A DNA stretch of 64,000 nucleotides from Cyanidioschyzon merolae (Eukaryota). Positions 14,024-44,937 of the stretch are shown piece by piece (positions within the stretch are counted from its first letter, which is position 1; every line of letters begins with the position of its first letter). Under the pieces are notes generated by a model. It ran no database searches. It worked only from the letters and a program-made list of their open reading frames with translations, and was not told the origin of the DNA. The stretch is from assembly GCA_000091205.1 (NCBI GenBank), contig AP006484.2; one strand, written 5' to 3'. The position numbers and the translations under genes were made by a program.

Positions 14024-15836
14024 CCGCCGCCGAAGGCCGCACGCGCCGCTGCACATCATCGAACGCCTGATCAAGGACACGTTGCAGGACACGTCGTCGG
14101 ATGCTCGCCTCCGTGAGCACATGCGTGTCCGTGTCCTGTGACGTGTCCGTGTCTGAATCTGCAGCGCGATCCGAGATCGCCGCTTCATCGACGTGGTTGC
14201 CTGCGAGCGCTGCCTCGTAGGCGTGCGTGCGAATGCGCGGTCGACGCGCCACCGACAGATCAAAGTCTAGCTCGGCATCGAGGACGGAGTCTACGGGGCG
14301 CTCATGACCGGTAACTTCACCGCGAAGCTGCCAGGGCTTCTCCTCTAGGTTAAATTTCTCTAGTGAACGGGCTCGGGTTCGCAACAGCGCCTCGCACCGT
14401 TCAAACGCGGATGTTTGGGCGGGTTCAGGTGTTGTCACTGGTGTGCACGTGGACGTGTTATCCAGAGTTGGCGCCGCTGTTGAAAGCTTGTGTGCGTTGT
14501 GCTTGCTGTCGTGTCTATTCTCCGCCGGTTGCGACTTGGTATCCATTGTAGCGTTTGTATATTGGTTGCGCTTTCTGTGTGGAAATGATTGCTCGCGTGG
14601 CGATGCATCGGAGCGCAACGAGTCGGATGCCTCTGAGCCGAAAAACTGCTCGTAATAGACATCATCTTCCGGAGAAGCTGAGGATTCCAGTGTGCCTGAG
14701 TCATCATCTGTCCCGAACGAATCTAACGAGGCATCGTCTATGTTGTCGATACTTGCTGTTGGTGATTCCGCGCTTGACCATGACGCATCTGGTGTCTGCT
14801 CGATCCAGGGGTCCAACTGGGCCACATGCGACGGCAACGCTTCACTGCGATTGTTTGCGTTGGAGTGCTGCGGCAGGGACTGGGCCTCGGAACCGGAGGC
14901 AGATGCACCGGCGGTGTTCGCTTCAGGCGCTGCAACATTGTGCGCCGATTCAATGGCGTTATCGCAGGTATCGCTATGACCTGGGCCTTTTTCATTCGAT
15001 TCGTCAGAGAGCAGGCAGTCTGGTGCCGATTCATCCGCTACGGACGCCGCGTTCGTACTCAGGGCGCGTCTCTTCACCGACGCAGCAGCATCTGACGCAA
15101 GCGAGTTTAACTCCATATCCGCACTCGTATGGCCAAACTTGCGTAGCGCTTCGTGGCCGACGTTCGCACCAAAGTCGCCACACGCTGCTTCATCCATTTC
15201 GTCCCGCTCACTGGAGTCTGAGGTCGACGAACCAGCATCATACATGGTATCGCACGCCTCCAGCATCGCATGCCCGATGATAAATTCATCATTGTCATTT
15301 TCATCGTCATCGTCATCGAAGAAAAAGTTTGGCGACATGCAGCCAACCTCCTCGTCTTGGTCCCGAACAAATTCCCGCGTTTCATTGCGCTCGTCATCGA
15401 AGCGTACCCGCTTCAGTGTCCCGTTATCCTGGCTCGGCGCTGTGTCCGCGGTAGAAGCAACCTCTATACATTGAGCGCTTCCGCCGCCCGTTGCAAACTC
15501 ACTTTCTATTCGCTCAAGCGTTTTCCTCGCAGCTGCACATAACGATCGGTTTCGTGTTTCGAGTTCGGCCCAAACTTGCTCGAGATCGAAACCGGCGATG
15601 CTCAATCGCTTGAGTTCGCCGAGCGTTGATCGCAAAGCCGCTGCGCGCCTTCCCAGGCATCGCCGCTTCGTTTGCCACTCAAGCGTCTTCGCAGCCGAGT
15701 CAAACAGCAGCTTACACAAGATACGGAGTTCCGAGGCCCCGCTCGGTTCCGCAACTCGTCCGGGGTCCGTTTGCGCTGCCTCCCAGGACAGCAGGCGAGC
15801 GTGCCACTCGCGCAGTGCGGCTGCTGTTTCGTGCAT
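12975..15836 (-). CDS. Hypothetical protein, 953 aa, low-complexity, with acidic D/E runs, poly-Ala and a basic Arg-rich C-terminal segment
   Basis: Long uninterrupted ORF with an ATG at 15836. No recognisable catalytic motif. Contains the (GCA)n-encoded poly-Ala at 13993-14022. Could be a nucleolar or charged scaffold protein. Coding status rests on the length of the ORF in GC-rich DNA, which is weak evidence. Confidence 0.4.
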
Positions 15837-16534
15837 GCCAGTACGACACTTGGAACGCTCCTTGCTTTCGCCAAAATCGCCCGCAGTTCACGCCAAAATC
15901 AGTTCTGAAAACGAAGTTGATAACCTTGGCTTCCACCACTACAACTACAAAGACCACCGGTACCAGTACCGAGTTTGAGGCAGCTCGTCGTCAAGCGTCC
16001 TGTGTCAGCGCAAACAGGTTCATGAATGAACGCAGGGCGGACGCGTGCCGACGTCGACGCCTGCGCTTCCGCCGGTCAACGAGAGCTGTGCAAGCAGACC
16101 GGCCACAGGCGGCTCGGAAGCTGTCCATGCGACGCTGTGCTCGTATCGTTACGCGTTATTCAAGGTATCCAGGGAGCTCCGAGTCCGAGTTGTACATTGC
16201 CGTCAGGAAAAGCATACATCAATGAGCACCAGATCCTCGGGGTTTCAGCAGTCGGCACGACCCGGGCTTCGCTCGGGGCATGTACGTCCGTTCCGACAAG
16301 CCTCGGGGTGCCGAGTGCCTGTCGCGAATGCTTCCAACGATGCCTGTATCGTCGCTGCGGACACAGCGTCGAGACGAAACGACATTGTCGTACGCTTTGG
16401 GACGCATGGAACCTGAGCCTCTCGCTACGAGGTGCCGCTCAACGCATGACCAGAACTGAGGCAGCTGGAGCATATTCCCTCCGCATGGCAATGATGGTAT
16501 GGACCCTGGAATGAAGACTGCCGCAGAACCTCTG

Positions 16535-16571
16535 GTGTGTGTGTGGGTGTGTGTGTGTCTGTGTTTGTGTC
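16535..16571. repeat. (TG)n microsatellite
   Basis: Direct reading: tgtgtgtgtgtgggtgtgtgtgtgtctgtgtttgtg. Confidence 0.9.
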
Positions 16572-19500
16572 TATGGAGAGCCTGCATCAACGGCGTGCCG
16601 GATACGAAAGCGCTATAGGCGTGGAAGCTACCGCGCATGCTTACAGACCGTGCCTCGTAGAGAGGGTATGTTGTTGCGGCCTCTTTGGTTGCAGAGGGGC
16701 TCGTTCGTCGGCCTCGCAGGTTGATATCCGTACATCAGCATACGTTTCAAAGTTTACGTCGGAAACGGCACTGCTAGAAAGGTTTCTCTCTCGTGAAGAG
16801 CCGCAGGACTAGTACCGACACTGCAGCCTCTTCCCAGACTCCGGGGCCGCTGCGTACTCGAGCGGGTCCAGGAACTGTGCGCCGTTTTTGGAGACAACTG
16901 CGTCAGTGACTGGACACCAACTGGGAGCTGCTGAGAACATGCACTGAGTTGCAGCGTGCGCTGCTCAGCCTGCGCTGGACAGGCAGGCGACCTTGCTTCG
17001 ACGCTGCCGGCGCCTTCTCGAGGCCGCCTTCCAGGACATCTAGTGGACCGGCCTGCAGCATTAGCGTTGCTTTGAGGACACGTGTGTATGCAAGTATGCA
17101 CCAGCCAGTTGGAGCGCTGGTTCGCTGCTGATGGACGAAGGCTGCGCACTAGTCGCAGTTGTCACGCGGAAAGCTTTCATGAGCTTTCTCGCACGGCGCG
17201 CTCCGAAAGCCGCGTCATCATAGGCATCCATTCCGCGGATGCACCTGCCGAGGACACGATTCGGAAGCCAGCGTCGCCTTTGCGCTTGCTGATGCTGCTA
17301 ACTCTGCCGAGCAGTGTGCGATGTGGCATCGCTGCTTTCTGCAAACGAACCTAGAACGCATTCTACGCTGCATCGACGCCCGAGATGCATACTCGGAACC
17401 GCGCGCTCGCGAATACTTGATCTCTCTTGGTAGGTTCGTTACGAGACGCGAGGTCTTGTCTCTGGAGCAGGTCCATCTTGTGTTGCGCTCACGAGGCTAC
17501 CGAGCGGAAACTTCTGCGGATCGAGCGATTCCGCGGTGCTCGGTACCGTTTCCAGGCCTGTGCACCTCGGCCGCCACGCGCGGCAACTGGGACCTCTCGG
17601 ATGAGCGAATGCTAGCCCGGGGTATCGCTCTGGTTGCCGAGTTTCTCCAGCGTGTCGCTTTGCATCGCTGTCGGGTCGCTTACGTGAGCTACCTGTCGTT
17701 ACCCAGACCGATATCGAGCCCCGAGCCCGCGTCGAGTACGCTGCACCTCGAATGGATGCGCGTAAAGGTGCTGCGAAGTCGTCGTATCGCCAGGGCAGTG
17801 ACAGCAGCGATGCAGATAGGATTGCGCTATGCACGAAACCCGTGGATGCATACCTCGTCCGGTCTTGTATTCCCTAGCAGAGTGCTGTTCTGAAAGTGAT
17901 GCAACCTGGGTGTTAACGTGTCAGCGCTGAAGTACATAGCCTCATCGATGGCGCCTGATTTGCCGCATCGATCCCTGACCACCTGGGTCGCGGGCGTGCA
18001 GCGCCTCGTTCGACCAGATGCATATGCACCTTGAGACACAACAATATCGACAAACATGTACCGTGCGATTCACGAGCGGGACTTTGACATATTGCAGCGT
18101 CCCCGGTGCGCGGTCTGCGACAGCGGCATGCGGCATGTGAGCGCTACCGCTGGCGTCGCAAACGTGCCCGCCGAGAACCCGAAGCACAACTAGAGCCGCG
18201 TTGGATTAAAGTGGGACAGTGAACTGCTTGTTCTGTTCCTGTTATTCGATTCATTCACGGATTTTGTAGACGTACAGCCTCGACGCTCAAGCCAAGTCCC
18301 GCTGTAACGGCCTACGGATTCGAAAGCAATGCTGAAGACTCTCAGTCGTTTATTCGGAGTTGCTCCTTTGACGCCTCGCTGCTGGAGTTCCTTGCCCTAA
18401 TGGTATCAAAATGAACCGCGACGCTCTGGGACTAAAGTTCGTGAACCAATGGATACCATCATCGGTGCCGTGCGTTACGCATTCCCAAATGACGCATTCT
18501 GCATGTTTTCGATCCTTACGTTTCAAGGCAACTTGTGGGCACAGTCATTGGCCTCGCTAAATTGTCGCGGAGAAACGACTTGATGTCATTCGTTGGGAAA
18601 CTCTATGCGAGATCATCTCGCAAGTCCATTGAACTTGTTACGTCAAATCATCGATTCCGTTCCCAAGACACATCCTGTTTCGCACATCGCCATCGACGAC
18701 ACAATATTCAGCATCTGCATATTACATCGCATCGGAAACACCCCGAGAGGCTCATGTCTCTGCTATTTGCATGGAAACGGGTCCTGGACTCGGACTTGAG
18801 TCGTCCCAGCGATCGGTTCGGGTGGAGCATGCGTCACCGCCTTGCACGAAGGCAACGTGTGCTGATCGGGATATTTCGATGAGCTCTGTATCCTCGATTT
18901 ACCTACCGGTGCTTGTTTCATCATGGATAACATTGCGTTCAACAAAGTCTCTCTTGAATGGAGCGGCGTGCGCTTGCGACTGCAGCGGACTGCGTACTCG
19001 CCAAGAGCGTTGCACAGCAGAAGCGCATGATCATAGGGCAAGGCACCGCGCGCGCGAAATCGGAGGACGACATCCCAGTGAGCAGTTTTTCACATGTCTG
19101 GGGCATGCACCAATCCACGAAGCAAGCCGTGGAGCGCCAGAGGGCTGCACTCGGCGGGCAAAATGGGGTGTCCATAGAGGAGCACCTCAGCCCAGTCCGG
19201 TGTCACCGCTGGGATGAGCGCATCGATGCCATGCACATTGAAGATGAATACAGGAAGCGAAGCGTCGATCACGAATTCCGCCTGTCCATGACTTGCATTG
19301 ACTAGAACTTGAAGAGGCGAAATCAGTACATGAACGCTGCCACCAATATCCCAAGACGGCAGAAAATGGAGCCCGAGGGAAGCTGGACAACCATCGTACA
19401 CGCACCCAGAGGCCAGAATGAGGAATGGAAAGCAGTCGCAGCAGAACAAACCAGCAAGGTCTGGTGTTCATGTCAATCGGAAGAGACCCATTTTCTAGTC

Positions 19501-19841
19501 TGTACGCCGGAGTTTGCATAGTTGATCCGTTCCATTTCTTTCTGACATTAGTGCAGCGCTTTCGCGATACCGATGTGTACCAGCGGGAACGCGACGTTGA
19601 AGCCGAACGGAACGACATTGGAGAGCGTTCCCCAGGGACCAGTTTCCGAAAGCACATATCTGGCTCTAACCATGCGAGCATTCACCGACTAACCAATCTC
19701 CGTGTTTACCTTCGTTATACGGTGAAGAGACACTGCCTGCGAATGTTCAATTGACGCCGTCATGGATACCGTGAGAAATGATTCAAATCATGATACGGGG
19801 AATCACCATGGTTCGGTCAGACGTTGTGCTTGGACGCCCAT

Positions 19842-21626
19842 CTAGTAGTAGGATTCTCCTGGAATATCGTCCATGCCATCGTCGGCGCCTTTCTTGTCGT
19901 CCTTCTTTTCGGGAATCTCTACAACCAGCGCCTCGGTTGTAAGCACAAGGCCCGCCACACTTATCGCGTTTTCGATCGCACTGTTTGTCACTTTCACGGG
20001 ATCGAGGATACCCATTTCGATCATGTCGCCGTACTCTCCGGTAGCTGCATTGTATCCGTATCCAAAGGGTTTCCCGGCCACGTTTCCGAGCACGACCTCT
20101 CCCTCAAGACCGCAGTTCTCCGCGATCTGGACAAGTGGTGACTTGAGAGACCGCCGCAGCAGCTCCACTCCCAGTTGTGTGTCCTCGTCGCCGCCGACCT
20201 TGGCCTTGATCTCATCCATCTTCTGCATCATATAGACGAGCGTTGCCCCGCCGCCTGGAACAATACCCTCCTCGATCGCTGCTCGGCAGCTATTAATCGC
20301 ATCCTCGTACCGCAGCTTTTTGTCTTTGAGCTCGCTCTCGGTAGCGGCACCCACTCGAATTCGAGCGACACCTCCGCTGAGACGGGCAATGCGCTCATCG
20401 CACTTTTCGCGGTCGAACTGGGTGTCAGCGTCTTCTCGCTCCTTACGAATCTGCTTGATGCGCTCTCTTACCTCTGCCTCATGGGATCCATCCGAGATAA
20501 TTGTCGTCGTCTCCTTGCCGACGACGATACGCTCAGCGCGGCCAAAGTCCTTCTCAGTGACACCCTCTAGCGTCATACCAAGCTCACCGGCAACCACTGT
20601 GGCTCCAGTCACGATAGCGATGTCCTGCAGGTACGCCTTGCGCCGGTCACCAAACCCGGGCGCTTTGATCGCACAGACATCAAGAACGCCGCGCATCTTA
20701 TTGACCACCAGCGTTGAGAGCGCCTCGCCCGTTACATCGTCGGCGATAATGAGCAGGGGCTCTTTGTCTTTGACGCATTGCTCAAGAATTGGAATGATTT
20801 CGTTCACGTTCGAAATTTTCATATCAGTGATCAGGATTCGCGGCCTCTCTAGCGTGCAAGTCTGGCGATCCTGCTCCTTCACGAAATATGGCGACAGGTA
20901 ACCACGATCGATCTCCATGCCCTCGGAGAACTCGACATCGTCCGTGATCGTTTGCGACTCCTCCACAATCGTGCTGCCGTTCTCTCCAACTCGCTCAAAA
21001 GCCTGCGCAATGATACGCCCAAACTCCTCGCTATTGCCTGATGCAATCGTCGCGATTGCTTCAATGTCCTTGGGGCTCTTGATCGGCACTGCTAGTTTGC
21101 GGATCTCCGCGCGCAACAGCTGGCCTGCCTTGTCCAGACCGCGCTTCAGTGCAATGGGGTTCGCGCCAGACTCAACCAGCTTCAGACCCTGGTTAATGAT
21201 AGACTGAGCGAGCACTGTAGAGGTTGTGGTTCCGTCCCCGGCCCGCTGATCCGTCTTCGACGCCACCTCCTGAAGGAGGCGCGCACCCACGTTCTCCGTG
21301 GGATCCTCAAGAGAAATATCTCGCGCGATCGTCACCCCGTCGTTCACGACTTCAGGTGCACCGTACGAGCGCTCCAGAACGACATTACGCCCCTTTGGAC
21401 CCAACGTGATGCGTACCGCATCTGCAACTGCATTGATACCGCGAACAAGCCGACGACGAGACTCCTCGTGGAACACCACCTGCTTGGCAGCCATACTCAC
21501 AGACAGCACCGAAGAGCGCCCCGGCGTCGTCCTCCTTGACAGTTTCTGCCCCATCTGCAGACGACCTGACGCATCAAACCTTCCAACGAAGCCATTAGCG
21601 ACGAACATGCACTGCATTGGAACCAT
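19842..21626 (-). CDS. CPN60: Chaperonin 60 (GroEL family), plastid-type, with an N-terminal presequence
   Basis: AAKQVVFHEESRRRLVRGINAVADAVRITLGPKGRNVVLE, AGDGTTTSTVLAQ, GYLSPYFV, KAPGFGDRRKAYLQDIAIVTGATVV, GYGYNAATGEY (plastid Cpn60-like rather than mitochondrial GYDAMAGDF). The track start at 21692 is GTG. In-frame ATGs lie at 21626, 21617 and 21608. A ~45-aa R/S-rich leader precedes the mature domain. Confidence 0.85.
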   Translation of the reverse strand: MVPMQCMFVANGFVGRFDASGRLQMGQKLSRRTTPGRSSVLSVSMAAKQVVFHEESRRRLVRGINAVADAVRITLGPKGRNVVLERSYGAPEVVNDGVTIARDISLEDPTENVGARLLQEVASKTDQRAGDGTTTSTVLAQSIINQGLKLVESGANPIALKRGLDKAGQLLRAEIRKLAVPIKSPKDIEAIATIASGNSEEFGRIIAQAFERVGENGSTIVEESQTITDDVEFSEGMEIDRGYLSPYFVKEQDRQTCTLERPRILITDMKISNVNEIIPILEQCVKDKEPLLIIADDVTGEALSTLVVNKMRGVLDVCAIKAPGFGDRRKAYLQDIAIVTGATVVAGELGMTLEGVTEKDFGRAERIVVGKETTTIISDGSHEAEVRERIKQIRKEREDADTQFDREKCDERIARLSGGVARIRVGAATESELKDKKLRYEDAINSCRAAIEEGIVPGGGATLVYMMQKMDEIKAKVGGDEDTQLGVELLRRSLKSPLVQIAENCGLEGEVVLGNVAGKPFGYGYNAATGEYGDMIEMGILDPVKVTNSAIENAISVAGLVLTTEALVVEIPEKKDDKKGADDGMDDIPGESYY

Positions 21627-21744
21627 GAAAACTGGTAAAGCGCACTGGAAAAGAGCTCGCTTCGACGCTATCCCAATGCCTCGGACGCACACTCAGGAAT
21701 CACCAGATGCTATTGATGATGACGAAGTTGATCGAAGACGCCGT

Positions 21745-21780
<36 letters not shown>
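21745..21780. repeat. (CGG)12 trinucleotide repeat upstream of the Cpn60 start
   Basis: Direct reading: cggcggcgg x12. Generates spurious poly-Arg and poly-Gly ORFs in the track. Confidence 0.95.
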
Positions 21781-21781
<1 letters not shown>

Positions 21782-22084
21782 CACGCGCCATTGAGGCGCG
21801 CGCGCGATGTGCATCACGGATCGAGAAAGAAGCGGGTCGACGCCCGCTGTGGTACGGCAACGCCGCTCTGTTTCCGTGCAGCATCCGCACCGGCGCCTGA
21901 GGCGCCATGGCGGTCAATCAGGACAGGCACCCGGCACACGATAGAACGTATGAAACGACCAGAATATCCGAGAAGAAGTAAAGGTAATGGAATTTGGAAT
22001 CAGGGCGTGGATCGACGGATGCTTCACCGTGCACTGAAGAATACAAACAAAAGAAAAAGAGAGAAAAGTGCTCGATTAGAGAAC

Positions 22085-22660
22085 GCTGGCCTATTTTTCA
22101 GATGACAAATCGTTTACATTGACCATGGATCGCAGCATTCGGAATGGAGAATGGCTTTCGGGAAAGCGTCCATCATGAAGCACCTCCCTTCAAGTTCCAT
22201 TACCAGTACTTCTTCTTATCAGATATACAGGTCGTTTCGTATGTTGTGTCGTGCGCCGAGCCTGCCGAAAGCGACAGCAATAGCGCATATACCGCTGAAG
22301 CAGGTGCGACACGGAGACAGAACGGCTTTGCCATTACCAATGAAAGCGTCGACTCGAGGCGTGGTTCCTCCGACATAGGGTCGGAGCACATAGTAATTCT
22401 GGGAGCCTGCAAGCTGCCCAGACGGACGTGCAACCTGCGACAGCGCGAAGCGATATACTAGGAGTCCGCTGCGACCAGGGCGACGCCCGGGCGCAGCATA
22501 ACTGCGCTTATTCCCGGAAGGAACTGTGTTGAGGACGAGCTGTTCATGTCTCGCCACAGCACCCGCCACTGGGGGAGCACGAAGCACGAGCCCGGGACAC
22601 TCGTCCGGCTCGCGGGGCCTTCTACCTAGAAGGTAAACTTTCGAAGATACGGGAACTTTT
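22085..22660 (-). repeat. Copy A of a ~590-bp non-coding repeat family (minus orientation), left arm of the head-to-head inverted pair
   Basis: Reverse complement is near-identical to 23428-24015. The track shows identical 122-aa and 105-aa artefactual ORFs on opposite strands in both arms, with one substitution (H/Y). Confidence 0.85.
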
Positions 22661-23427
22661 CACCGTTCCAACGCTCATTATCAAGGTCAAAAGAAACTGT
22701 TATCTAGTTGCTGGTCAGTGTTTAGTTTCTGTTCTTTCTTCCCTAGGAGAATGCTCTCTGCTCGCGGCCTGGCACAACTGGAGGGCCCACCAGTCCGAGG
22801 ACTAGCCTTTGTTGCCGCTGTTTCTATGCAAAGCTCTGCCGCGCGCGCTCCTTCTCTCTTTCTCTCTCTACATTCTCCTGTCCGCGCCCTTGGCCAAAAC
22901 TCTGAAAAGATATCGCTCGCGTCACTCGTGTTCCTATGTAGGGTATATAGATACGCACTCACAGACGCCTCCGGGCCTTTCCTTGACGGGCCGCGTGCTA
23001 CCGGATTCAGCTTCTCCTCGTACACTACGAGCCTGTCATCGTTTTCTGCTGCTGCCTCCGGCCCTCCGTTCGTTGCGGCCAAGGTCCCTGTCATGGGCTT
23101 CCTTCCCCGTCGCTCGAACACCCCGAGTGAACCCACTTTCAGAGCTTCGCCGAAACAACTAGACCTCTCAGACGGGGGTGGTGTGTGTGGGGCTTTAAGA
23201 TACTTGCTCTTTAGTACACAGTCTGTGGCTAGTTTGTTTTGTTGTTTTTTTCTTTTGTGTTTGGGCAGGTGTCTCCGTCTTGATTGGCTGCGTATCGATG
23301 AATATCACGCGTCGTGTCTCATGCCTGCCTGATCTCCCAGGCGCGCTCACCAAGCGAACTATAGAATCACGTACAGAGACTCATGACTAACGCGCAACGA
23401 TATGAAAATTTCCCCCTCTGAGCTAAA

Positions 23428-24015
23428 CGTTAAAAAGAGGAAAAGCTTCCCGTATTTCAGAAAGTTTACCTTCTAGGTAGAAGGCCCCGCGAGCCGGACG
23501 AGTGTCCCGGGCTCGTGCTTCGTGCTCCCCCAGTGGCGGGTGCTGTGGCGAGACATGAACAGCTCGTCCTCAACACAGTTCCTTCCGGGAATAAGCGCAG
23601 TTATGCTGCGCCCGGGCGTCGCCCTGGTCGCAGTGGACTCCTAGTATATCGCTTCGCGCTGTCGCAGGTTGCACGTCCGTCTGGGCAGCTTGCAGGCTCC
23701 CAGAATTACTATGTACTCCGACCCTATGTCGGAGGAACCACGCCTCGAGTCGACGCTTTCATTGGTAATGGCAAAGCCGTTCTGTCTCCGTGTCGCACCT
23801 GCTTCAGCGGTATATGCGCTATTGCTGTCGCTTTCGGCAGGCTCGGCGCACGACACAACATACGAAACGACCTGTATATCTGATAAGAAGAAGTACTGGT
23901 AATGGAACTTGAAGGGAGGTGCTTCATGATGGACGCTTTCCCGAAAGCCATTCTCCATTCCGAATGCTGCGATCCATGGTCAATGTAAACGTTTTGTCAT
24001 CTGAATAATCAGGTG
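23428..24015 (+). repeat. Copy B of the ~590-bp repeat family (plus orientation), right arm of the inverted pair
   Basis: Begins taaacgttaaaaagaggaaaagcttccc... and ends ...ggtcaatgtaaacgttttgtcatctgaataatc. The 5' end faces the 770-bp spacer, as does the 5' end of copy A. Confidence 0.85.
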
Positions 24016-24210
24016 CGCATCGGACACGTGCCTGTCACCTGTCCGCGCGCCGCAACGCCGGATCCGGATGCAGCGATACACGTCGCATAACCCGAGATGC
24101 GGGCGCTTATGCATCACTGCATACACGCATGACGGGCGTCCATGTAACACCGAACGCGCCTTTTTGTTCATTGTCTAGACGAGTTAAAAGGTTGATTATC
24201 CTGTGAATTG

Positions 24211-24888
24211 ATGACGTCGCAGACACTTGAGAACAGCGAGGACACCGAGAGCCGGCGGGTGGGAACGCTAGCCGACCGCGAGCTCGTTGCCGAGCTCATG
24301 TACCCGACCTCCGAAGAAAGCGCGTTCAGTTGTTTCCGGTGCGAAAACTGCGCAAGAACGGTGTGGGTGTGCCTTTGCGGCGCCGAAATAGTGCCCGGAA
24401 CGACACGGACGGAAGATCTTGTACCCTTACGTCGGGAAGGAGGGCGTTTGTCCCTGGTATCCTCGGGGTGGTCGGCTGCGAGTCAGTGTTCCACAGTCGG
24501 GTCGCCGTCGCTAAAAGCGCCTCCAACTCCAACAGCTGGCCATCGGGTGCCATCATGCGATCCTGTGCTGGATGTGAAGTACGCGGCAAGCAATGGACCG
24601 GTGCTCGGCGATGATGGAAAGACGGTGTTTTGCAGCATGGACTGTTATTGGAGTGCGTCGTTGGACCCAAATTGTCAGCGGATTCGCCTGGTTTACGAGA
24701 GAAAGGGCGCGCGCCCTAAGATTCTGGAACGTCGATGCGGTAAACCCGGCGGCACATTGGAGGCGGGAGCGCCTTGTCGTCCGACACGCGGGCGTCCGCC
24801 AACCGATGAGCGAGGAGCACCCGCCGCGTTGCTGCATCGCCGCCCCGATGCCATCGAGTGCAACGCGGGGGCGTCGTCACCGCAGCTG

Positions 24889-24920
<32 letters not shown>

Positions 24921-25158
24921 CCGCGTCGATGTATCCAAGAGGCTGCTCCAGAAACAAGCACAGCTACTGCGAATTCCGCAGTCGACGCGCACTGCAGAAG
25001 AAAACGATGCCTCGCTCTGGGACCGTCTGCGGTGTGGGAACCAGTGCCATCAGTCGGGTGATGTACAGCATGCGATGTACGAGCACCATGCCTACTTTGG
25101 AGGAACCTTCCGCCGAACGGTTGGTGTTGAAGTGCTTCGACGATACACCTGGTGCTGA
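24211..25158 (+). CDS. Hypothetical Cys-rich protein (possible zinc-binding protein)
   Basis: ~315-aa ORF. Cys clusters CFRCENCARTVWVCLCG and VFCSMDCYW, a poly-Ser run, no confident family assignment. The track start at 24208 is TTG; the ATG is at 24211. Confidence 0.3.
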
Positions 25159-26674
25159 TGTCTACCAGGAATGACTGCGAACGGATCTGCCCTTTCCTGT
25201 ACAGGTATACTAGCGTCACGATTCAGACATCCGGATCGGTACTGTTGGGTTTTTTGTGTACGATTTTTGTCTAACCATTCCCCAGTCCATTACTCTGTGT
25301 ACGTGCTCATCATCTATAAAAGATCGCGTAGCGATGATTCAAACACAATCGGATAGGGCGAGCAGCCACAGCTCGGACCTGAACTCGGGGAGCGTTTTCA
25401 TGACGTATCGCGTACAGGCAGTCGCAGGTTTCGGGTCGACGATGAGATCGCAGCGCCGCAGCACCAGCGTCGGCACACCATTACGAAAACGGTGCTCGCA
25501 TCCACCGAAGCTTTCATGAAGGAACAGTGCGTCGCGGACGTCGTCGTTGCATGGCCTTTGGTGGAGTGCGTGCGCTTCAAGGTGTCAACGCGGCTGCCTT
25601 GTAAGCAACAAGCGCGCCCTATGCAGACGTTTGTGGGTACCTCAACTGCATCATGAGGTACACACAGCGACAGCCCTACTCCTGGGCGTTCGAACAGCCC
25701 ATACGACGTCGCCCGGTGGTGAACAGTAGTATATGCTTATCTTGGGTGTCCAGATTTGGCAGCGCACGTACCCGAATTCACTACAATTGCGAATGGATGC
25801 CCACGAGATATCGAGCCTAACGTAAGCATTTGGTCTTCATCATGCGAGAGTGATGCGTGGGACGAGAAGCTCCAGCTCGCATAGATGATGCTGATGCCGC
25901 ATTTTTCGTGCATAGAGCTCCTGTCCTGAGCGGATTCCTGCGAATACCGCAGCCCCCAGTTCAGTGTTTCCCCTCGGACCAGAGCTTTATTGGATCTAGC
26001 GATCCGCCCAGTGGCTCGTCCGCTGCGCACGACTCGAGGAGGCGGGGCGCTGTTTTGCTTTATACGGTTTTGCAATGATAAACCTAACGACGGATCCCTC
26101 TGATGCACCACAATTACCGGAATGAGGACGTATTTGCCTGCAGAGTGTCGGACACGTGTCCATCATCGATCGGAGTAGCGTCTCGCGCGGTGCACGCATT
26201 GCGCACCGTAAGCGCGCCTGGGAGATCGGGCAGTCAACTGACGCGACGCGCGTGCCGTTGTTGAAGGGAAATGGGATCCTGATCAGGAGCGTGTAGCTCT
26301 CTTTTAAAAGTTGTATTTCCGTTAACTTGCTAGGCAAGTGTAGTTTTTCAGCTCACTCGTGTTTCAAACCTCAAGTAAAAATATTCGATTGGGGTTTACC
26401 GGTTTATAACAGAAGCGTTCAAAAGCGTTTTTTTTCCAAAAAAAAAACTAAAAAAGGAAAGCTATGAAAAAAGTTGACGATCTTGGAGGCCCAGTGTCGC
26501 TGGCTGCCAGAAAAAAAAACAAAAACCAGTGCCGAGTACAGAAGAAAAGGAAGAGGAAAAGAAGCAAACAATTTAGAGGGCCTACGTCGTAGGCAGCAAG
26601 AAAGACGCCTGTACGACGAGACGGTGGTGAAAGTCTGTTTTCTTGAACATGACTAGGATCCGTACGATGAAAAG

Positions 26675-28697
26675 TTGCGAGACGCTATCAGAAACCATGT
26701 CGACTCGTTCGCCAAGAGTATTGTCAAGGCGTCGTCAGGATTGGTGCATTTGGCGAGGGAGATGCATTGCAACGTGACGCACATGGAAACGGTCGAGATT
26801 CCGAATGAGTTCTTCGATAAGACCTTTACTCGTCACCTGATGCTTGGTACAGAGGAAACGCGGAAGGAAAATGAGCTGGTGCAAATCCTCCACGAAAAAC
26901 ATCCCCTTTACAGCTTCAATGGTACTCGATACTAGGCTTACCGGGATATTTATCCATATGGGCCCATGAAGTACCCCACGAATCTGAAGGACCATTTGAC
27001 GGTGAACCTCGAACGTTTCATGATACGTGCCGTGGTTACACTCTACCTGGGCCTATCTCGCAATGGAAAATGGGCGATTATCAATGGCGTCACGAACGAC
27101 CGCAAGCGTGAAGATGAGGTCGAATTTGTCGACAAGAAGACATCACGCAGGAGCACGAATGAAGCTTCTGGAATCCGTGCGGTTACAGAAGAGCACCGTG
27201 CGGTACTGGGGTTGGTTCATCCAACAGACAAGATATCAGAGTTGAAAAAAGACAAGGAAAGATACTATCGCCTCGTCCTGCGATATTTCGTGTTTTTGGA
27301 CCGAGAACTCGAACACAAGGTGGAGATGAAGCTGAATGGCGAAAAATGAAGAGTGGGAGAGACCGAAGGCTTTCCTAAAGGGGAAGCGCTTAAACGTGGT
27401 TCCAATGTGCAACATCAGGTCACATTTCGTGACTATCGACTCCAGAATCCTTTACGGCATCATGAAAGGGATCAGTACCGTGTTCAATGTTAGCAGGGAA
27501 TACTTCACCGGCGAAAACCGGGAGACGTACTGGAAGAATATCTTCGATTTCAAACGCCTGAGAGTGAGCAAGCAGAAATTGTTCACTGGGATGATCGAAA
27601 GCGATGGAGTAGCCTTGTGTGTACACGATCGGCGGTTGAAGACAAATCGTCCAGTTCCGCCCTCGGTCTCGCCCGTGCCGAAGCGTGAAGAAAAGGAGGC
27701 GGATCCTGTGACGCAGGAGGTGGAGGATAACGACCTTGTCGTTGATGCGGTGAAGCATGAAGAAAACAAGCAGGCGGATCCTGAGACGCAGAAAGTGCAT
27801 AACAACGACTTTGTCGTTGGCGCGGACCCCGGAAACACAAATATCATAACCATCGCAGTACCCAAACGTGCGGAGGATTGTACTGACGGTAACTTACGTC
27901 AGAAAGACATACGTATTTTTAAGTTCTAAAGATAGAGGCATTACCGAGAATCCGGTATAATAAATGCGAAGAAGAAAATCGGGACATGGAATGCAGGAGT
28001 CAAAGAGCACCTTGAAGCTTTGAGCGAGGTGACGAGCCGCGGAATAGACTTTCAAACTTTTCGGGAGTTCATGAAAGTTCTCGTTCCTCATTGGTAGGCG
28101 CTGTGGGAGGCGTATACAAAGCCCCGGTGGGCTCGTCTGCGTATGAACGTTTACTGCGGGAAACAGCGTGCATTCGCGAACTTTTTCAATGAGTTGAGTG
28201 CCTTCACAGATGATGAAAGTCACAGGCTCGTAGTAGCGTACGGAGCAGGGCGCTGGGCGTCGAGAACAGGTACTACGCCAGTTCCGTCAACAAGAACGTA
28301 CAAGGAGTGCGCGAGGCATTTTGCCGCAATGCCTGTACATGTGTTCCGAACATCGTATACACACCACGACTTGGAGTGCACACTTCTGAAAGTCGAGGTG
28401 GAAAAGTGCCAGCGGAGCCCGGAGGATATCAAATTGTACGGACCGCTGAAGGAAGAGCAAATGGAAAGCAGGGCAAAACTTCGAGAGCTACTTGCGCTTG
28501 TGTGCACAACCAATGATGGCAAGAAACGTATAAAATTCCTGTATCGCGACTTTAAGGCCGCTATCAATATGAGGACATGTGCAGTGCTGGAGAACAGAGC
28601 TCCGGAATGGACAGGAGGGAATTTGTGGGGCAACATCTCAAAGTGGAACTATATGAGAAACAATTGGAACCATTCGTACGTGACCGGTCGAGGATAA
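26675..28697 (+). pseudogene. Pseudogenised TnpB/Fanzor-like nuclease ORF (copy 1)
   Basis: Frameshifts between the N-terminal fragments. In-frame TAA AGA TAG at 27927-27935 (shared with copy 2). Copy-specific TAG at 28095-28097 where copy 2 has GAT. Confidence 0.5.
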
Positions 28698-28812
28698 CTG
28701 GGAAGCGTCTGCACCTCAGTGGATGACCTCGTGTCTGGGGCGCGTCACTCGCCAATATTCTACTCCGCTGGCGGCAGCGTTTTTCTTCTGAAAGGCGTTT
28801 GTTGTTGCTGGC
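26675..28812 (+). mobile_element. Degenerate TnpB/Fanzor-like (RuvC-fold, OrfB_IS605-type) element, copy 1, including the conserved 115-bp 3' flank; 5' boundary uncertain (could extend to ~26400)
   Basis: Fragmented ORFs at 26675-26935, 26966-27349, 27336-27929 and 27936-28697 are co-linear with paralogous fragments at 50918-52555 (minus). RuvC-I-like [16 protein letters not shown] (Asp codon ~27825). RuvC-III-like RDFKAAINM (~28549). Zn-ribbon-like FRTSYTHHDLEC. Reconstructed protein ~670 aa. Homology with copy 2 continues 115 bp past the stop, to ~28812. Confidence 0.5.
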
Positions 28813-28815
28813 GAT

Positions 28816-30543
28816 ATGCTCAGGTGGTCCGGATCTCAACAGGTAACCGACCGGAACCGAGCCGAACAGCATGGCCTGGTCGTGGCGTTCGCTTTTCCTG
28901 CTCGAGCACCGCGCCACAGCGAAGCAACACACGAGCGCTGGACTGGGCTGGCGCAGCGCGAACGCGGCTTGTGTGTACCGTTGAAAGCGACCAAGTGGAA
29001 ACGAGACTTGTGGCACTCGCGAAAGCTTCAAATGCAGGAGCCTGCACAGCGGAACAGAGAGCAGGTGCAAGCGCTAGTAGTAGGCTCTGGAGTGACTGGC
29101 TCTTCGTTCGCGTTCCTGCTGCAGCACGCTGGAATAAGCGATGTGATTTGCACCGAGGCACGAGGTGAAGTTGGTGGAAACCTTATTTCGCGTTCCAAAG
29201 ACGGCTACCTTTGGGAAGAAGGGCCCAACACCTTCCAACCAACACCGGTGATTCTGAAACTCGCGCGAGACGCGGGTCTCGAGTCCGAGCTTGTCTTCGC
29301 CGACGCCAAACTCCCTCGATACGTATACTGGGAGGGGGTTTTGCACGCGCTCCCGAGTTCGCCTGCAGACCTGATCACCGGCCGTTTCCGCCTGTTATCG
29401 AATGCGGGGAAGGCTCGGGCAGCGCTCGGAGCGCTCGGGTTCGTAGGCGCACCCAAACGCGTCGCACGGCAAGCTGGACCCGAGCCCAGCGAGGATGCTG
29501 ACCTAGCAGACGAGTCTGTAGAGGAATTCGTGACTCGCCATCTAGGCCGCGAAGTTTTCCTGAAGATTATAGACCCCTTCGTGAGCGGTGTGTATGCAGG
29601 CGATCCCAGCAAACTCTCCATGGCTGCAGCTTTCAAGCGCGTGTACGCACTCGAGCAGCTTGGCGGAACACGCGGGATTCTCGAAGGGGCGCTCATCCGT
29701 CTGCAACAACGTCGACGGGAACGTCAACGCTGGGCGGCAGAGAATCTCCCCAAGGTGAAAGCGGGTGCACTGGGCTCCTTCCGCGAGGGCCTGCAGCAGT
29801 TGCCGCTCACAGTGGCGACTCGGCTGGGCCCTGAGCGAATGCGAACTCGGTATGCACTGCGCCAAATTGAATACAATGGAGCAAAACGTGGAAAACGTCG
29901 CTATACTGCCCGCTTCGAAACCCCAGATGGCGAACGAGTTATCGAAACAGATGCCCTCATTCTTACGATCCCCGCACATGCGGCGTCACCGCTCTTGCAA
30001 GGTCTGGGTGTCTCTGGGAGTGAGCTGCTCCAGGAAATCGACTTTCCGCCGGTATACTCGGTAACTTTGGCATACCCAAAGTTTGCAGCGCGGTTTCCCC
30101 TAAACGGTTTCGGGAACCTGATACCGCGCTCTGCCGGTATTCGCACCCTCGGGATGGTCTGGTCGTCGAGTTTGTTTCCGGAACGAGCGCCTCCCGATAT
30201 GAATATGGTGCTCTCATACATCGGCGGTGCGCGTGATCCTGGTATCCGCGAATGCACCCCGGATGAAGTCGCTGCCCTCGTAGACGCGGACATGCGTCGC
30301 GTCCTCCTACGTGCCGATGCACCTTCGCCGCAAGTTCTTGGTGTGAGACTTTGGCCGCGGGCGATTCCACAATACAACCGGGGTCACTTGCGGCGCTTGG
30401 AAGCCTGCAACCAGGGTCTACAAGGCTTTCCTGGTCTCTTTTTAGGCGGAAACTATCTGAGTGGCGTTTCCTTCGGTGACTGCGTACAGTGGGCGTACGA
30501 TAATGTGCCTCGAGTGCTGACGTTTCTGCAGGAGACGGCTTGA
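28816..30543 (+). CDS. PPOX: Protoporphyrinogen IX oxidase (HemY-type, FAD amine-oxidase fold)
   Basis: ALVVGSGVTGSSFAFLLQHAGISDVICTEARGEVGGNLIS (dinucleotide-binding GxGxxG), ...YLWEEGPNTFQP..., and a conserved C-terminal HemY-like region. The first ATG at 28816 gives a ~72-aa leader (possible transit peptide); an alternative ATG is at 29032. Confidence 0.8.
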   Translation: MLRWSGSQQVTDRNRAEQHGLVVAFAFPARAPRHSEATHERWTGLAQRERGLCVPLKATKWKRDLWHSRKLQMQEPAQRNREQVQALVVGSGVTGSSFAFLLQHAGISDVICTEARGEVGGNLISRSKDGYLWEEGPNTFQPTPVILKLARDAGLESELVFADAKLPRYVYWEGVLHALPSSPADLITGRFRLLSNAGKARAALGALGFVGAPKRVARQAGPEPSEDADLADESVEEFVTRHLGREVFLKIIDPFVSGVYAGDPSKLSMAAAFKRVYALEQLGGTRGILEGALIRLQQRRRERQRWAAENLPKVKAGALGSFREGLQQLPLTVATRLGPERMRTRYALRQIEYNGAKRGKRRYTARFETPDGERVIETDALILTIPAHAASPLLQGLGVSGSELLQEIDFPPVYSVTLAYPKFAARFPLNGFGNLIPRSAGIRTLGMVWSSSLFPERAPPDMNMVLSYIGGARDPGIRECTPDEVAALVDADMRRVLLRADAPSPQVLGVRLWPRAIPQYNRGHLRRLEACNQGLQGFPGLFLGGNYLSGVSFGDCVQWAYDNVPRVLTFLQETA

Positions 30544-35173: not shown

Positions 35174-35596
35174 GAGTGGGCAGCAGAGCGCGCTTCAGCG
35201 TAACCTGCGTGGACGCTCACGGCATCCAGCTCTGTCGAGCGCTGTTTGCTCGCTGGTCACGAAACGCTCGAGCGCTTGCGCCTTACGGCGACTCGCGGGT
35301 CTCGAGCTTCGGTAGTCACTGTGATAGCGTTCAGACAAAAACCTGATGAAAAACTTGCACACCGATCTGGTCGAAGCGGAGAAGCTCAGCGGCGTTATGA
35401 GGGAGAGGAATCCCGTCTGTAAAGTCAGGTACGATGCGGATGGTGAGCCATTCTGGTCTTTCAAGTAAATTTTATTGCACCATTGCTGCAGTGTATAGCC
35501 GGAGATCGAAACCACGATGCAACGTACCGTATCGAAAACGAACAGACACGAACTTTTACATGGTAACGAGATAACAATTTCGTTCGACCTGTGCGG

Positions 35597-36190
35597 TAAA
35601 CGTTAGAGGGGAAAGCTTTCCGAATCGTCGAAAGTTTGCGTTCAGAGCGAAAGGTCCCTAGAACTGTACGAGTCTGCAGGGCTAGTGCTTCATGCTCTCA
35701 CAAGTGGCTGGTGCTTTGGCGAGACGTAAGCAAATCGTCCGCAACAAAGGTTATTCTGGGACTAGGAGGGGGTAGGCTGTGTCGGGGCGTCGCCCTGGTC
35801 GCAGTGGACTCCTAGTACATCGCTTCGGGCTACAGGCAGTAGGTCTGTCTCCGCAGCTTCCTGGCTCCCGGCATGCTTATGTACTTCGACCCTCTGTCCG
35901 GTGAGCCACGCCACGCGGAGATGCCCGCAGTGGTATGGCAACGCCGTACAGTGTCCTTGATGCATCCGCTCCAGCGGCATAACTGCTATTACGAATGCAG
36001 CAGGGGAGGTACTCGGTGCAAGATAGAACGTATGGAACAACCAGTACATCCGAAAGGAAGTATACACAATGGGAATTGCAGCTAGGGTGCAGCATGATAG
36101 ACACTTTCCCCAAAGCCAATACCCATGCATTCCGCATCCTGGAATCCAAGGTCAACGTAAACGTTCTGTCATCGGCAAATAATCCGTTGC
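35597..36190 (+). repeat. Copy C of the ~590-bp repeat family (diverged, plus orientation)
   Basis: Shares with copy B the 5' block taaacgtta..gaaagctttcc..gaaagttt, a 33-mer gggcgtcgccctggtcgcagtggactcctagta (1 mismatch), GTGCTTC.TGCTC...AGTGGC.GGTGCT.TGGCGAGAC, ggaggtactcggtgca, atccgaaaggaagt, and the 3' block ggtcaacgtaaacgttctgtcatcgg.aaataatcc. Confidence 0.75.
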
Positions 36191-36198
36191 GGTCTTAT

Positions 36199-36625
36199 CC
36201 ATCCTGTCTATGATATCCAATATTATACGTTTTCAGAATCTTCCTCGATGCAGCGTGTCCATAGAGCTCACTGCCATCCTGTCTATAATGTCCAATATTA
36301 ATCGTTTTCAGAACCTTCCTCGTTGCAGCGTGTCGATGGCGCTCACTGCCATCCTGTCTATAATGTCCAATATTATCCCTATTCAGAACCTTCCTGAATG
36401 CAGCGTGTCGATGGCGCTCACTGCCACCCTGTCTATAATATCCAATATTATCCCTATTCAGAATCTTCCTCGATGCAGCGTGTCGATGGCGCTCACTGCC
36501 ATCCTGTCTATAATATCCAATATTATCCCTATTCAGAATCTTCCTCGATGCAGCGTGTCGATGGCGCTCACTGCCATCCTGTCTATAATATCCAATATTA
36601 TCCCTATTCAGAACCTTCCTCGATG
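36199..36625 (+). repeat. 75-bp minisatellite, ~5.7 tandem units, immediately 3' of repeat copy C and in frame with the bromodomain ORF
   Basis: Unit cagcgtgtcgatggcgctcactgccatcctgtctataatgtccaatattatccctattcagaaccttcctgaatg (75 bp = 25 codons). The track ORF translates MQRVDGAHCHPVYNIQYYPYSESSS three times. Confidence 0.9.
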
Positions 36626-38632
36626 CAAGTCCCCGCGCCATTCCCGCATACTCCGCTGCGCCCTCTGGTTCGTATTTGCGACGTGCAGCGCACCAGTTCC
36701 ACCTGGATGCGTCGTACCCGCCAGCATGCACCCTTTGCTGGTAACAGTATATCCTATAGCGCTCGGGAAGATGACGGTTTCCCCGATAGAGAGGATCCCG
36801 GCGATCTCGCCCTCCCGGACGACAGCTGGTCGGCGACGGGCGACGACACCGAGTCCAGTGCAGCGACGACTCGGCGCCAGCGGGTAACGCGGCGGCGAGG
36901 TCGGGCTTCGTCTCCGAGCACCGACACCAGTGAGCCTGCGCGTCAACGACAGCGACGCTCGCGCACCTCTCACATCAGTGTCGGTGACGAGTCCGGACAA
37001 CGACCGACTATCCGGACGCGCTCGGCATCGTCGCTAGAAGCAGGCGGCGTGCCCCGAGCCACTTCATCTGATCAGGATACGTTTCGGAATACCGTGGCTA
37101 TTCTCATTGAGCAGGTACGGCAGCATGATCGTTATGGGTTCTTCTGTGCCCCGGTTGATCCGGAGGAGGCGCCTGACTATCACGAAGTGATCCCAGAGCC
37201 GATGGATCTCGGTACCATGCAGAGGAAGCTCGAGACAGGCAAATATCGGCGCCTCGACGAAGTTGAGCGTGACCTAGATCTTATCTGGCGCAACTGTTTC
37301 ACATATAATCCAACAAATAGCATTTACTACCGCGAGGCGGCACGAATGCAAAAGTGGGCGCTGAAACGGGTCCAGTGGGCGCGTCAGCGACTCTGCGGCA
37401 TTACGGGAGCGCCCAGTCCCGCCGAAGGACAAAGCTTCAGTACGTCAACGCATTCTCGTGATGAAAAGGTACAGCACACCCATTCGAGGATGGTGAAAGG
37501 CGTATCGCGTGGGTCCGCGGTGGCTCTGGACTCGGCACCGCGGATGACGGTACGACTCCAGACAGAACGTCATCGGGACCCGGCTGCAGTGCCCGGCACG
37601 AGCTCGGAGCTGCCTACCGCAACCGAAACTGAAGGCAAACCGAAACCCGTTGCCGAAATGGATGTTGTTCTGGATGAGGCGCTGGACCCAGAGGCATCGT
37701 ATGCGGTGGCAGCGCAGGACCCTGGCGCCTTTATCGAGCGCGTATGGCGAGCGTTCGTGACTCGCCAAGAGCGCTTGCGTATCGAGAAGGAGCACGAACG
37801 ACTGTATCACTATCCGCGTCACAGTTCGGAGGGCGAGCGTGCTGCTGCTGACCTAGCCAGGACGATGCTTTCGCAATGGCTCGGGAAAACGATCAAACGG
37901 GCTCCGAACGATGCGGAGAAATATTTGCTGGAAATTCTTTCCGCTGCAGAGCTACCCGCCGAAACTCTCCAGCGAATGGCAACAGCATTCACGAGTCAGC
38001 AGCAGAACGGAGCAACTGCAGCAGCATCTGTTGAGGAAAACCCGTCTTTGAAGTCGAGGCCTACAGTCGGACGTGGTACACATGCAGCCGCTTCGCATGA
38101 CGATGCCCAGACCCGAGGAGCGAGTGCTTCAGCAACGGACGACTCGCCCGAGACATCAAAGGACGCGTTCATCGCCTCGCGTTGGTATGCCTTGCGACGC
38201 TCTCTTGCAGCGCTCCGGTTGGCCCAGATACAGAACGCACCCCTTTCCGAGCAACTCCGCCGCTATGATACGGTGCTCGCGCTCCTAGCACGCCAGTTGG
38301 AGACCATCCCGCCACGATTGCTCTTAGCCGAGGGTGGAGTCGAGAGCATCCGCGCATTTGCGCAGCGCCTTGTCCAATATGAAGATTCTCGTGCCGAAGA
38401 CGCAACGCCAAATGCTGAGAGTTCTGGACAAACACCGATGGCGAGTGATCCAGATGCGACGCAGCCGCAAAAGGGTGCTACAGATGGCCATAGCGTCGGT
38501 CATCACCCGGCAGCGACACCAGGAGCCGCTCATGCAAACGATGGGGGCGCTCAGACGGATCGCCCGCATGACATCAAAGTCGACGGCGTTTTTTCTGCGG
38601 GGAACGCAACTATGCTCAGACCGCAGGTTTAG
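36398..38632 (+). CDS. Bromodomain-containing protein (start codon uncertain; N-terminus may include minisatellite-encoded 25-aa repeats)
   Basis: Bromodomain FFCAPVDPEEAPDYHEVIPEPMDLGTMQRKLETGKYRRLDEVERDLDLIWRNCFTYNPTNSIYYREAARMQKWA (conserved Y...N pair). Alternative ATGs lie downstream of the repeats (~36623, ~36695). Confidence 0.7.
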   Translation: MQRVDGAHCHPVYNIQYYPYSESSSMQRVDGAHCHPVYNIQYYPYSESSSMQRVDGAHCHPVYNIQYYPYSEPSSMQVPAPFPHTPLRPLVRICDVQRTSSTWMRRTRQHAPFAGNSISYSAREDDGFPDREDPGDLALPDDSWSATGDDTESSAATTRRQRVTRRRGRASSPSTDTSEPARQRQRRSRTSHISVGDESGQRPTIRTRSASSLEAGGVPRATSSDQDTFRNTVAILIEQVRQHDRYGFFCAPVDPEEAPDYHEVIPEPMDLGTMQRKLETGKYRRLDEVERDLDLIWRNCFTYNPTNSIYYREAARMQKWALKRVQWARQRLCGITGAPSPAEGQSFSTSTHSRDEKVQHTHSRMVKGVSRGSAVALDSAPRMTVRLQTERHRDPAAVPGTSSELPTATETEGKPKPVAEMDVVLDEALDPEASYAVAAQDPGAFIERVWRAFVTRQERLRIEKEHERLYHYPRHSSEGERAAADLARTMLSQWLGKTIKRAPNDAEKYLLEILSAAELPAETLQRMATAFTSQQQNGATAAASVEENPSLKSRPTVGRGTHAAASHDDAQTRGASASATDDSPETSKDAFIASRWYALRRSLAALRLAQIQNAPLSEQLRRYDTVLALLARQLETIPPRLLLAEGGVESIRAFAQRLVQYEDSRAEDATPNAESSGQTPMASDPDATQPQKGATDGHSVGHHPAATPGAAHANDGGAQTDRPHDIKVDGVFSAGNATMLRPQV

Positions 38633-44431: not shown

Positions 44432-44937
44432 CAAAACCCACGACACTCAGGATAGTACAGTCTTGTGTGGCTTGCTTCGAGCGCTCTCGCGCCCACTGTT
44501 CAGCGTTCGGGCTGGAGAGGCGGCGCGGCTCAGGTGTGATGCCCCGAGGTCGCCACGCTGCCTCTCCCTGCAGGAGAGTAACTCCGTTCGAAGGGTTTCG
44601 AGCCTTCAATTGCCCTGCAAATCAAAAGCAAAGTCCTGCCCCGCGCCAGAGACGCTGCAGTGAAACGTCTGCGCCGCGTCCTGGAAGCTCACCGGCGGGA
44701 GACACCGAGCGCACGCGCGTTGGCGCCTAGTCCAACGATGAACCCTAATCTTGTTCGACGCTGGCGAAGAACTCTCCAACACTTTAGCGCTCCAGCAAGC
44801 GAACTTGCCGCCGTTTGCCTCTGAAAGAAACGTCCTAGTAGTGAGCTCGTGGAGCACGATTGCTATGAAAGTCGACGTTGGCCAGCACGACTGATACGGA
44901 TCCAGCCTCGCGTTCGGGTCAGCCAAGTAACCCGGAT

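Follow-up and report, generated by a model that had tools for sequence, protein, structure and literature searches.

A near-identical inverted repeat in Cyanidioschyzon merolae is best explained as two old transposon leader copies homogenised by gene conversion

The transposon family CMe-1A is present in Cyanidioschyzon merolae in about 150 copies of about 3 kb, which encode a Fanzor1 protein, are approximately 80% identical to their consensus and have no terminal inverted repeats; target site duplications (TSDs) could not be determined when the family was described (PMC3627910). TE-N2_CMe, with about 70 copies, is 95% identical over its whole length to the 5' 635 bp of CMe-1A (PMC3627910). 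The same paper also lists white spot syndrome virus as a Fanzor1 carrier and describes the MCi-2 elements of Mucor circinelloides as Fanzor1 elements without terminal inverted repeats and with 11-12-bp TSDs (PMC3627910). The genome paper of C. merolae reported a transcribed repeat that averages 3.2 kb, accounts for about 5% of the genome and carries a truncated ORF weakly similar to WSV486 (PMC1955436, Nozaki et al. 2007). Size, copy number and the viral link suggest that this 'WSV repeat' is the CMe-1A family: the average of 3.2 kb compares with a consensus of 3.17 kb, and Bao and Jurka list Fanzor1 in that virus. H3K27me3 is found on about half of the annotated repetitive elements of C. merolae (PMC5405695, Mikulski et al. 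2017).

The window analysed here is a 64,000-nt stretch of chromosome 2 of C. merolae 10D, with about 55% G+C and approximately twelve long intron-less ORFs. It contains a 570-nt inverted repeat, the arms of which (22093-22661 and 24009-23440) are 98.6% identical by BLAST; a repeat search of the window returned arms of 568 nt (22093-22660 and 23442-24009) that are 98% complementary and separated by 781 nt. An inverted repeat of this length and identity cannot have arisen by chance within 64 kb. The repeat reported in the initial annotation is therefore real, and the limits given there (22085-22660 and 23428-24015) were a few bases too generous. The ORFs noted within the arms were also found as described, those of 122 aa being identical and those of 105 aa differing by one residue (EHIVILG versus EYIVILG; His/Tyr). 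A more distant 'copy C' is likewise present (35565-36191, 72%), and BLAST within the window detected two other diverged copies, copy D (52564-52995, 67%) and fragment E (21833-21996, 71%).

The initial annotation missed that the arms belong to a dispersed transposon family. The 3,169-bp CMe-1A consensus, taken from Additional file 2 of Bao and Jurka 2013 (PMC3627910) and aligned to the window by BLAST, has a Fanzor1 ORF at nt 906-3110 (734 aa) and matches six pieces of the window; a 2024 paper on 'dispersed repeats' (PMC11050394) contains no usable family definitions. Copy A (22093-22741, plus strand) is of the TE-N2_CMe type and aligns with consensus nt 2-640 at 22101-22741 (81.7%, E 2e-178), preceded by a T-rich terminus of about 8 nt. 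Copy B (23308-24009, minus strand), a 3'-truncated copy of the CMe-1A type, aligns with nt 2-697 at 24001-23308 (81.1%). The near-identical part of arm A (22093-22661), which lies in the plus orientation of the element, corresponds to consensus nt 1 to about 560 of CMe-1A and TE-N2_CMe; that of arm B (23440-24009, minus strand) was delimited by the repeat search, BLAST and the consensus alignment. The alignment shows the arms, at the level of sequence, to be copies of the non-coding 5' leader module of CMe-1A, about 640 bp long, and together with the published statement on TE-N2_CMe it identifies the stand-alone leader as that element. The arms comprise the leader module alone, without the Fanzor1 ORF, because they stop at nt 640 and nt 697, before the ORF.

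The remaining family pieces include two with a degenerate Fanzor1 ORF. F1 (26209-28797, plus strand) is a solo CMe-1A body that matches consensus nt 657-3169 at 83-84% and ends 18 nt before the start codon of the protoporphyrinogen oxidase (PPOX) gene. Copy D and the adjoining F2 (50817-52992, minus strand) form a CMe-1A element with an internal deletion, in which consensus nt 1-423 (76%) is joined to nt 1399-3147 (85%), and the 5' terminus lies toward a DJ-1 gene. Copy C (35530-36174, minus strand) is of the TE-N2_CMe type (nt 1-644, 79.8%) and has its 5' terminus toward a bromodomain gene; fragment E (21838-21998, minus strand; nt 90-248, 81%) lies between arm A and cpn60. In tblastn comparisons the consensus Fanzor protein was 71-80% identical to F1 and F2, and the ORF of the larger element contains the RuvC-type motifs VGVDPGNTN ... 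IPVDEFRTS ... NRDFHAAINI (D...E...RD). Pfam returned no domain in the Fanzor-like ORF fragments or in the two F2 ORFs; the Fanzor assignment therefore follows the published classification and the visible RuvC-type motifs.

Placing the two copies on the consensus altered the description of the locus in two respects. The spacer had been described as 770 bp of unique sequence. However, diverged family sequence continues inward from both arms, over about 80 nt beside arm A and about 130 nt beside arm B, so that the non-family spacer between copies A and B is only about 566 nt (22742-23307). Two other loci in metagenome contigs contain sequence that resembles part of it (23035-23256; 78-83% similarity). 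The inverted arrangement had also been termed head-to-head, a polarity that was arbitrary; once the element is read in its published orientation, the two copies are convergent, with their 3' ends on the spacer side and their 5' termini pointing outward.

The gene for the plastid chaperonin Cpn60 (BAM78846; 19842-21626, minus strand) is divergent from the 5' terminus of copy A. An ORF of 315 aa from its first ATG (24211-25158, plus strand), in which Pfam returned no domain, lies 202 nt beyond the 5' terminus of copy B in divergent orientation and has an ortholog in Cyanidiococcus. Seven proteins encoded in the window match entries of C. merolae 10D exactly; besides Cpn60 they include protoporphyrinogen oxidase (BAM78848), Mpp10, a bromodomain protein and MRE11. 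At orthologous loci of the Cyanidiococcus type, the gene order cpn60, 305-aa gene, PPOX is kept and the intergenic regions are shorter. Searches of those contigs by blastn and tblastn found no family sequence at these loci, so that at this locus only the Cyanidioschyzon lineage has the insertions. It was also considered whether copy B and F1, which lie on opposite strands and overlap by 41 nt of consensus (nt 697 versus nt 657), are one element split by an inversion. This idea is unparsimonious and was rejected, because a reversal of the inversion would put the 315-aa gene in an orientation at odds with the Cyanidiococcus gene order, and because other loci also have solo bodies that begin at nt 648-657.

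The structure of the family was examined with a degenerate 31-nt motif common to all five window copies, for which no chance matches are expected. The motif matched 75 stretches of hot-spring metagenome contigs, which resolve into approximately 24 distinct loci, each seen in two to five strains. The copies are 67-82% identical to arm B and have sharply defined limits; in an alignment of 23 loci, one end and the adjacent 280 nt or so are common to all copies, and the other end is variable. In consensus coordinates, copies start at nt 1-10 (68 copies) or nt 648-657 (7), and end at nt 250-288 (49), nt 634-663 (23) or nt 3141-3169 (20). A second window repeat (26960-28807, inverted at 50784-52561) adjoins the leader unit at many loci, and in several contigs the leader unit, a linker of about 760 nt and the body are contiguous as one repeat of about 3.3 kb. 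As the copy limits are discrete, the leader (nt 1 to about 640) and the Fanzor body (about nt 650-3169) also occur separately. In the eight copies inspected for terminal inverted repeats, comparison of the initial 40 nt with the reverse-complemented final 40 nt gave a longest common word of 5-6 nt.

Exact TSDs abut the termini at two loci, one of 13 bp (CGCAGCTCGTGAT; contigs L024, L055 and L069) and one of 12 bp (ACCCGAGGTGAT; L082, with one mismatch in L048), and the 5' TSD copy runs directly into the short T-rich run of the element. Two loci of about 24 are too few to fix the insertion mechanism. Degenerate TSDs for copies A and B, with 9 of 13 positions matching by eye, were not significant and are not claimed. 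As a separate observation on placement, at 19 of 22 loci the first ORF outward of the 5' terminus begins at a distance of 50-650 nt and in divergent orientation to the element (binomial p ~0.0009), and the 5' terminus of each of the four complete window copies (four of four) faces a divergent host gene start.

The pattern of identity along the two copies indicates how their near-identity arose. Over consensus nt 1-541, copies A and B are 99-100% identical to one another, and each arm is 74-88% identical to the consensus over nt 101-500. Over nt 501-560, the copies are 93% identical (85-88% to the consensus), and over nt 561-640 they are 56% identical, each arm being 71-75% identical to the consensus and still transposon sequence. 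Copy A ends at nt 640, copy B runs on to nt 697, and the family alignment places their inner ends in different subtypes. Because nt 561-640 are only 56% identical and yet transposon sequence in both copies, the arms are two old paralogs that were recently homogenised and not a fresh duplication. The suggestion in the initial annotation of ongoing gene conversion is supported as the explanation of the near-identity, with a 99-100% tract set against inner ends of 56%. The homogenised tract is bounded on the outside by the element terminus, where homology ends, and on the inside within the element. In environmental strains an arm marker (22110/23992) is polymorphic on both arms, each of which can carry either state, a sign that the arms may still be exchanging sequence.

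The best explanation is that the arms are two separate old insertions of the CMe-1A leader in opposite orientation, homogenised by gene conversion and without a dedicated function, and we consider this highly probable. In this scheme, two leader modules would have inserted separately and in opposite orientation between cpn60 and the 315-aa gene, so placed that their 3' ends point toward one another and a host gene start lies opposite each 5' terminus. Intrachromosomal gene conversion, a mechanism that we infer from the identity pattern, would then have replaced the sequence of one module by that of the other between the 5' terminus and roughly consensus nt 560, and the innermost parts of the copies would have kept their original diverged sequence. 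The inverted repeat would thus be a by-product of transposon insertion and ectopic homologous recombination. The same picture would result if an inverted duplication had taken the place of precisely the homologous stretch of a copy already present, an event that differs from gene conversion only in name.

Crossovers between the arms would be expected to invert the spacer. The locus could accordingly be an invertible segment, in which arm crossovers flip the spacer of about 780 nt, both isomers occur in natural populations and the expression of cpn60 or of the 315-aa gene is possibly affected; we place the likelihood of this slightly below even. Across samples and assemblers, three metagenome contigs hold the spacer in the window orientation (L005, L015 and L018) and eight hold it inverted (L002, L003, L004, L006, L007, L013, L014 and L016). 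Contigs of different samples show all four flank/spacer-end junctions, and identical spacer haplotypes are found in both orientations. The arms would also be known to recombine, if gene conversion is accepted, and homologous recombination is efficient in C. merolae (PMC3764038). However, the environmental arms share an identical core of about 530 nt, which is longer than short reads and typical inserts, and the assembly graph therefore allows either orientation. Two of the inverted contigs (L006 and L014) proved to be chimeras in which one end derives from other family copies, showing that these assemblies make arbitrary joins in the repeat, and no functional element was identified in the spacer. 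Haplotype and spacer orientation were not correlated, so haplotypes are of no help in separating a real inversion from an assembler choice. The contig orientations fit frequent flip-flop and assembler ambiguity equally.

A more far-reaching proposal, which we regard as unlikely, is that the leader is not scattered at random and that its placement near divergent gene starts reflects promoter-targeted integration, or retention as a promoter or boundary element, and that the two modules at this locus form a recombination-driven invertible cassette with isomers that coexist naturally.

The initial annotation had also put forward a recent palindromic duplication, which in terms of the family would mean that a lone transposon copy was duplicated in inverted form where no second copy had existed before. 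In its favour, the arms are 98.6% identical when other family copies differ by 20-33%. The proposal is nevertheless contradicted by the diverged yet homologous inner ends: a 56% identical extension (nt 561-640) on both sides would not be expected, nor would inner ends that belong to different subtypes and stop at nt 640 in A and nt 697 in B. We judge it very improbable.

The arms are non-coding, as the initial annotation had held: they show no 3-nt periodicity and no frame conserved among copies, and the ORF of the element begins only downstream of them, at consensus nt 906. Scores in tblastx comparisons between copies were approximately equal in all frames and required frame switches, and in the 23-locus alignment column identity by codon phase was 0.763, 0.766 and 0.750, with no lag-3 autocorrelation peak. 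The 105- and 122-aa ORFs were considered as genes and rejected, there being no signal in tblastx or codon-phase conservation; the only entry for the 105-aa ORF in the protein collection is a 'hypothetical protein' from a metagenome.

Multi-copy, non-coding sequence with a strongly conserved core of about 280 nt, in a repeat family reported to be transcribed (PMC1955436), might represent a pair of structural non-coding RNA genes, either divergent or convergent, with promoter elements common to both in the spacer. No Rfam family matched at the gathering score over the whole window, a permissive threshold over 21700-24300 returned only lncRNA noise (E > 0.28), and no tRNA was found in the window. 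For the conserved core of 23 non-redundant copies, RNAalifold gave -0.89 kcal/mol in sense and -0.25 kcal/mol in antisense, with nine and three pairs, respectively, none of them compensatory. A single arm folded no better than shuffled sequences (z -1.4 and -1.5), and neither folding nor covariation analysis gave a signal on either strand, whether for the core or for full-length units. Moreover, the discrete nested ends and TSDs are those of a mobile element, and the sequence precedes a transposon ORF as its 5' leader. The specific form of the idea in the initial annotation, two genes sharing a bidirectional promoter, is further opposed by the spacer-facing ends being the 3' ends of the element. 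We regard an RNA gene pair as very improbable.

A long-hairpin RNA or siRNA locus that silences the transposon family is scarcely credible, although any RNA transcribed across both arms would fold into a hairpin with a perfect stem of 570 bp (MFE -1460 kcal/mol). C. merolae is stated to be without RNA interference machinery (PMC11376382), which makes such a locus unlikely; its repeats are instead associated with H3K27me3 (PMC5405695). Short JGI contigs were not used as evidence of transcription, because they have no poly(A) ends and two of them are chimeric. The description of the locus as a foldback or cruciform-prone element holds as a statement of physical property only.

Inverted repeats are a classic source of misassembly, but, as regards the presence of two inverted arms, an artefact of the reference can be dismissed with near certainty, since two independent 17-kb metagenome contigs from two samples (L002 and L003) bear out the inverted arrangement by spanning flank, arm, spacer, arm and flank at about 99% identity, about ten shorter contigs span single arm junctions, and the reference itself was finished without gaps from Sanger sequence (PMC1955436).

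These observations place the inverted repeat within ordinary repeat biology of an already known family; they do not support a pair of RNA genes or an siRNA locus. Since two copies of a known, named transposon account for the locus, it does not merit follow-up as a candidate RNA gene or as a site of silencing. It does illustrate cleanly how gene conversion acts between transposon copies in inverted orientation, with the boundary of the tract mapped. The family, in addition, shows TSDs of 12-13 bp and discrete modules (nt 1 to about 640 and about nt 650-3169), neither of which was determinable in the original description, and its 5' terminus is strongly biased toward host gene starts. All three points may be of use to those working on Fanzor or on C. 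merolae, but none of them is surprising enough to change the verdict of known repeat biology.

In plastid inverted repeats and in the palindrome arms of sex chromosomes, arm-to-arm gene conversion keeps the copies near-identical and crossovers invert the segment between them. The present locus resembles these systems in its concerted, near-identical arms. It differs in that they are large and long-lived and carry genes in their arms, whereas the arms here are 570-nt transposon leaders and inversion is putative. Read on the opposite strand, the family might be taken for a SINE-like non-LTR retroposon, with a short A-rich run at the common terminus, TSDs of 12-13 bp at two of about 24 loci and nested ends (nt 250-288, 634-663 and 3141-3169); the ends of the family are, however, discrete and not scattered, and the ORF would be antisense. 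MCi-2, like the present family, is a Fanzor1 carrier without terminal inverted repeats, with TSDs and with one end common to the copies and the other variable. When the two are compared by description, the common end of MCi-2 is the 3' end and the variable end the 5', in contrast to the C. merolae family, in which the 5' terminus is the common end. CMe-1A and TE-N2_CMe are from the same organism, and the identity of about 81% over the 5' 640 nt or so is the divergence that their authors report for typical copies; copies A and C end at nt 640-644, close to the 635 bp of TE-N2_CMe, and terminal inverted repeats are lacking in both CMe-1A and the copies described here. The original description of CMe-1A reports no TSDs and no positional bias, both of which were found here in environmental copies. 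At the level of the family there is otherwise no difference, and it is the inverted pairing with gene conversion that is particular to this locus.

The leaders of CMe-1A, a Fanzor1 transposon family, and of TE-N2_CMe, which consists of the leader module alone, mostly lie with their 5' termini close to the starts of host genes. The orientation of these termini was counted over the window copies and the metagenome loci L020-L094, and at 19 of 22 loci a divergent host ORF was found to start 50-650 nt from the leader 5' terminus (p about 0.0009). The four complete copies in the window (5' termini at 22093, 24009, 36174-36183 and 52992-53002) all face a divergent gene start, the genes being cpn60, a 315-aa gene, the bromodomain gene and DJ-1. 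These observations suggest that the leaders are subject to promoter-proximal targeting or retention.

The junction between leader and body was also considered. Copy B, the minus-strand leader of the inverted pair, extends as far as consensus nt 697, whereas nt 657 is the first position of the solo body F1, which lies on the opposite strand at a distance of 2.9 kb and with a host gene in between (window 23308-23350 and 26208-26250); the two share 41 nt of consensus, in which they are 84% identical. At L094:7241-8818, a body starting at consensus nt 648 is directly adjoined by an inverted leader fragment. A breakpoint or module junction thus located at consensus nt ~640-660 is recurrent.

The start codon of protoporphyrinogen oxidase (28816) lies only 18 nt past the 3' end of F1 (28797; region 28742-28818). 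As a gene-sized environmental contig (L001) starts within the final ~56 nt of the element, the 5' UTR or promoter of this gene may be transposon-derived. The Cyanidiococcus ortholog carries no element at the corresponding position.

Short environmental contigs were chimeric at family copies (L006:1-120, L014:1-900 and L012:1-5150), their chimeric ends being more similar to other loci than to the one in the window. Contig structure within the CMe-1A family should not be trusted without read-level support.

A tandem array of a 75-nt unit (36124-36702) extends into the N-terminus, as annotated, of BAM78851, the 744-aa bromodomain protein. Its environmental variants are 669, 694, 719 and 744 aa long and thus differ in steps of 25 aa, or one repeat unit, and the array is therefore a coding copy-number polymorphism. 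Upstream of cpn60, contig alignments are interrupted at a (CGG/CCG)n simple repeat (21693-21780), suggesting length polymorphism; in spurious ORFs this repeat is translated as poly-Arg or poly-Gly. The Mpp10-cpn60 interval (15836-19842) comprises ~4 kb without long ORFs, its Cyanidiococcus equivalent being only ~1.4 kb. The spacer between the inverted arms is otherwise unique, but part of it (23035-23256) is 78-83% similar to two other loci on metagenome contigs (L089:8899-9106 and L053/L083/L092), matches no part of the CMe-1A consensus, and may represent a further small repeat family. The window also holds a weak inverted repeat pair (18756-19000 versus 39930-40174; 66% over 245 nt) and an 82-nt tandem duplication (44935-45098; 98%).

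Target-site duplications were not found at ~22 of the family loci, presumably owing to decay. Two TE-N2-type copies are flanked by exact duplications, one of 13 bp (CGCAGCTCGTGAT; L024:8388-9020, L055 and L069) and one of 12 bp (ACCCGAGGTGAT; L082:6200-6838 and L048:1211-1849), a feature left undetermined in the original description of the CMe-1A family (PMC3627910).
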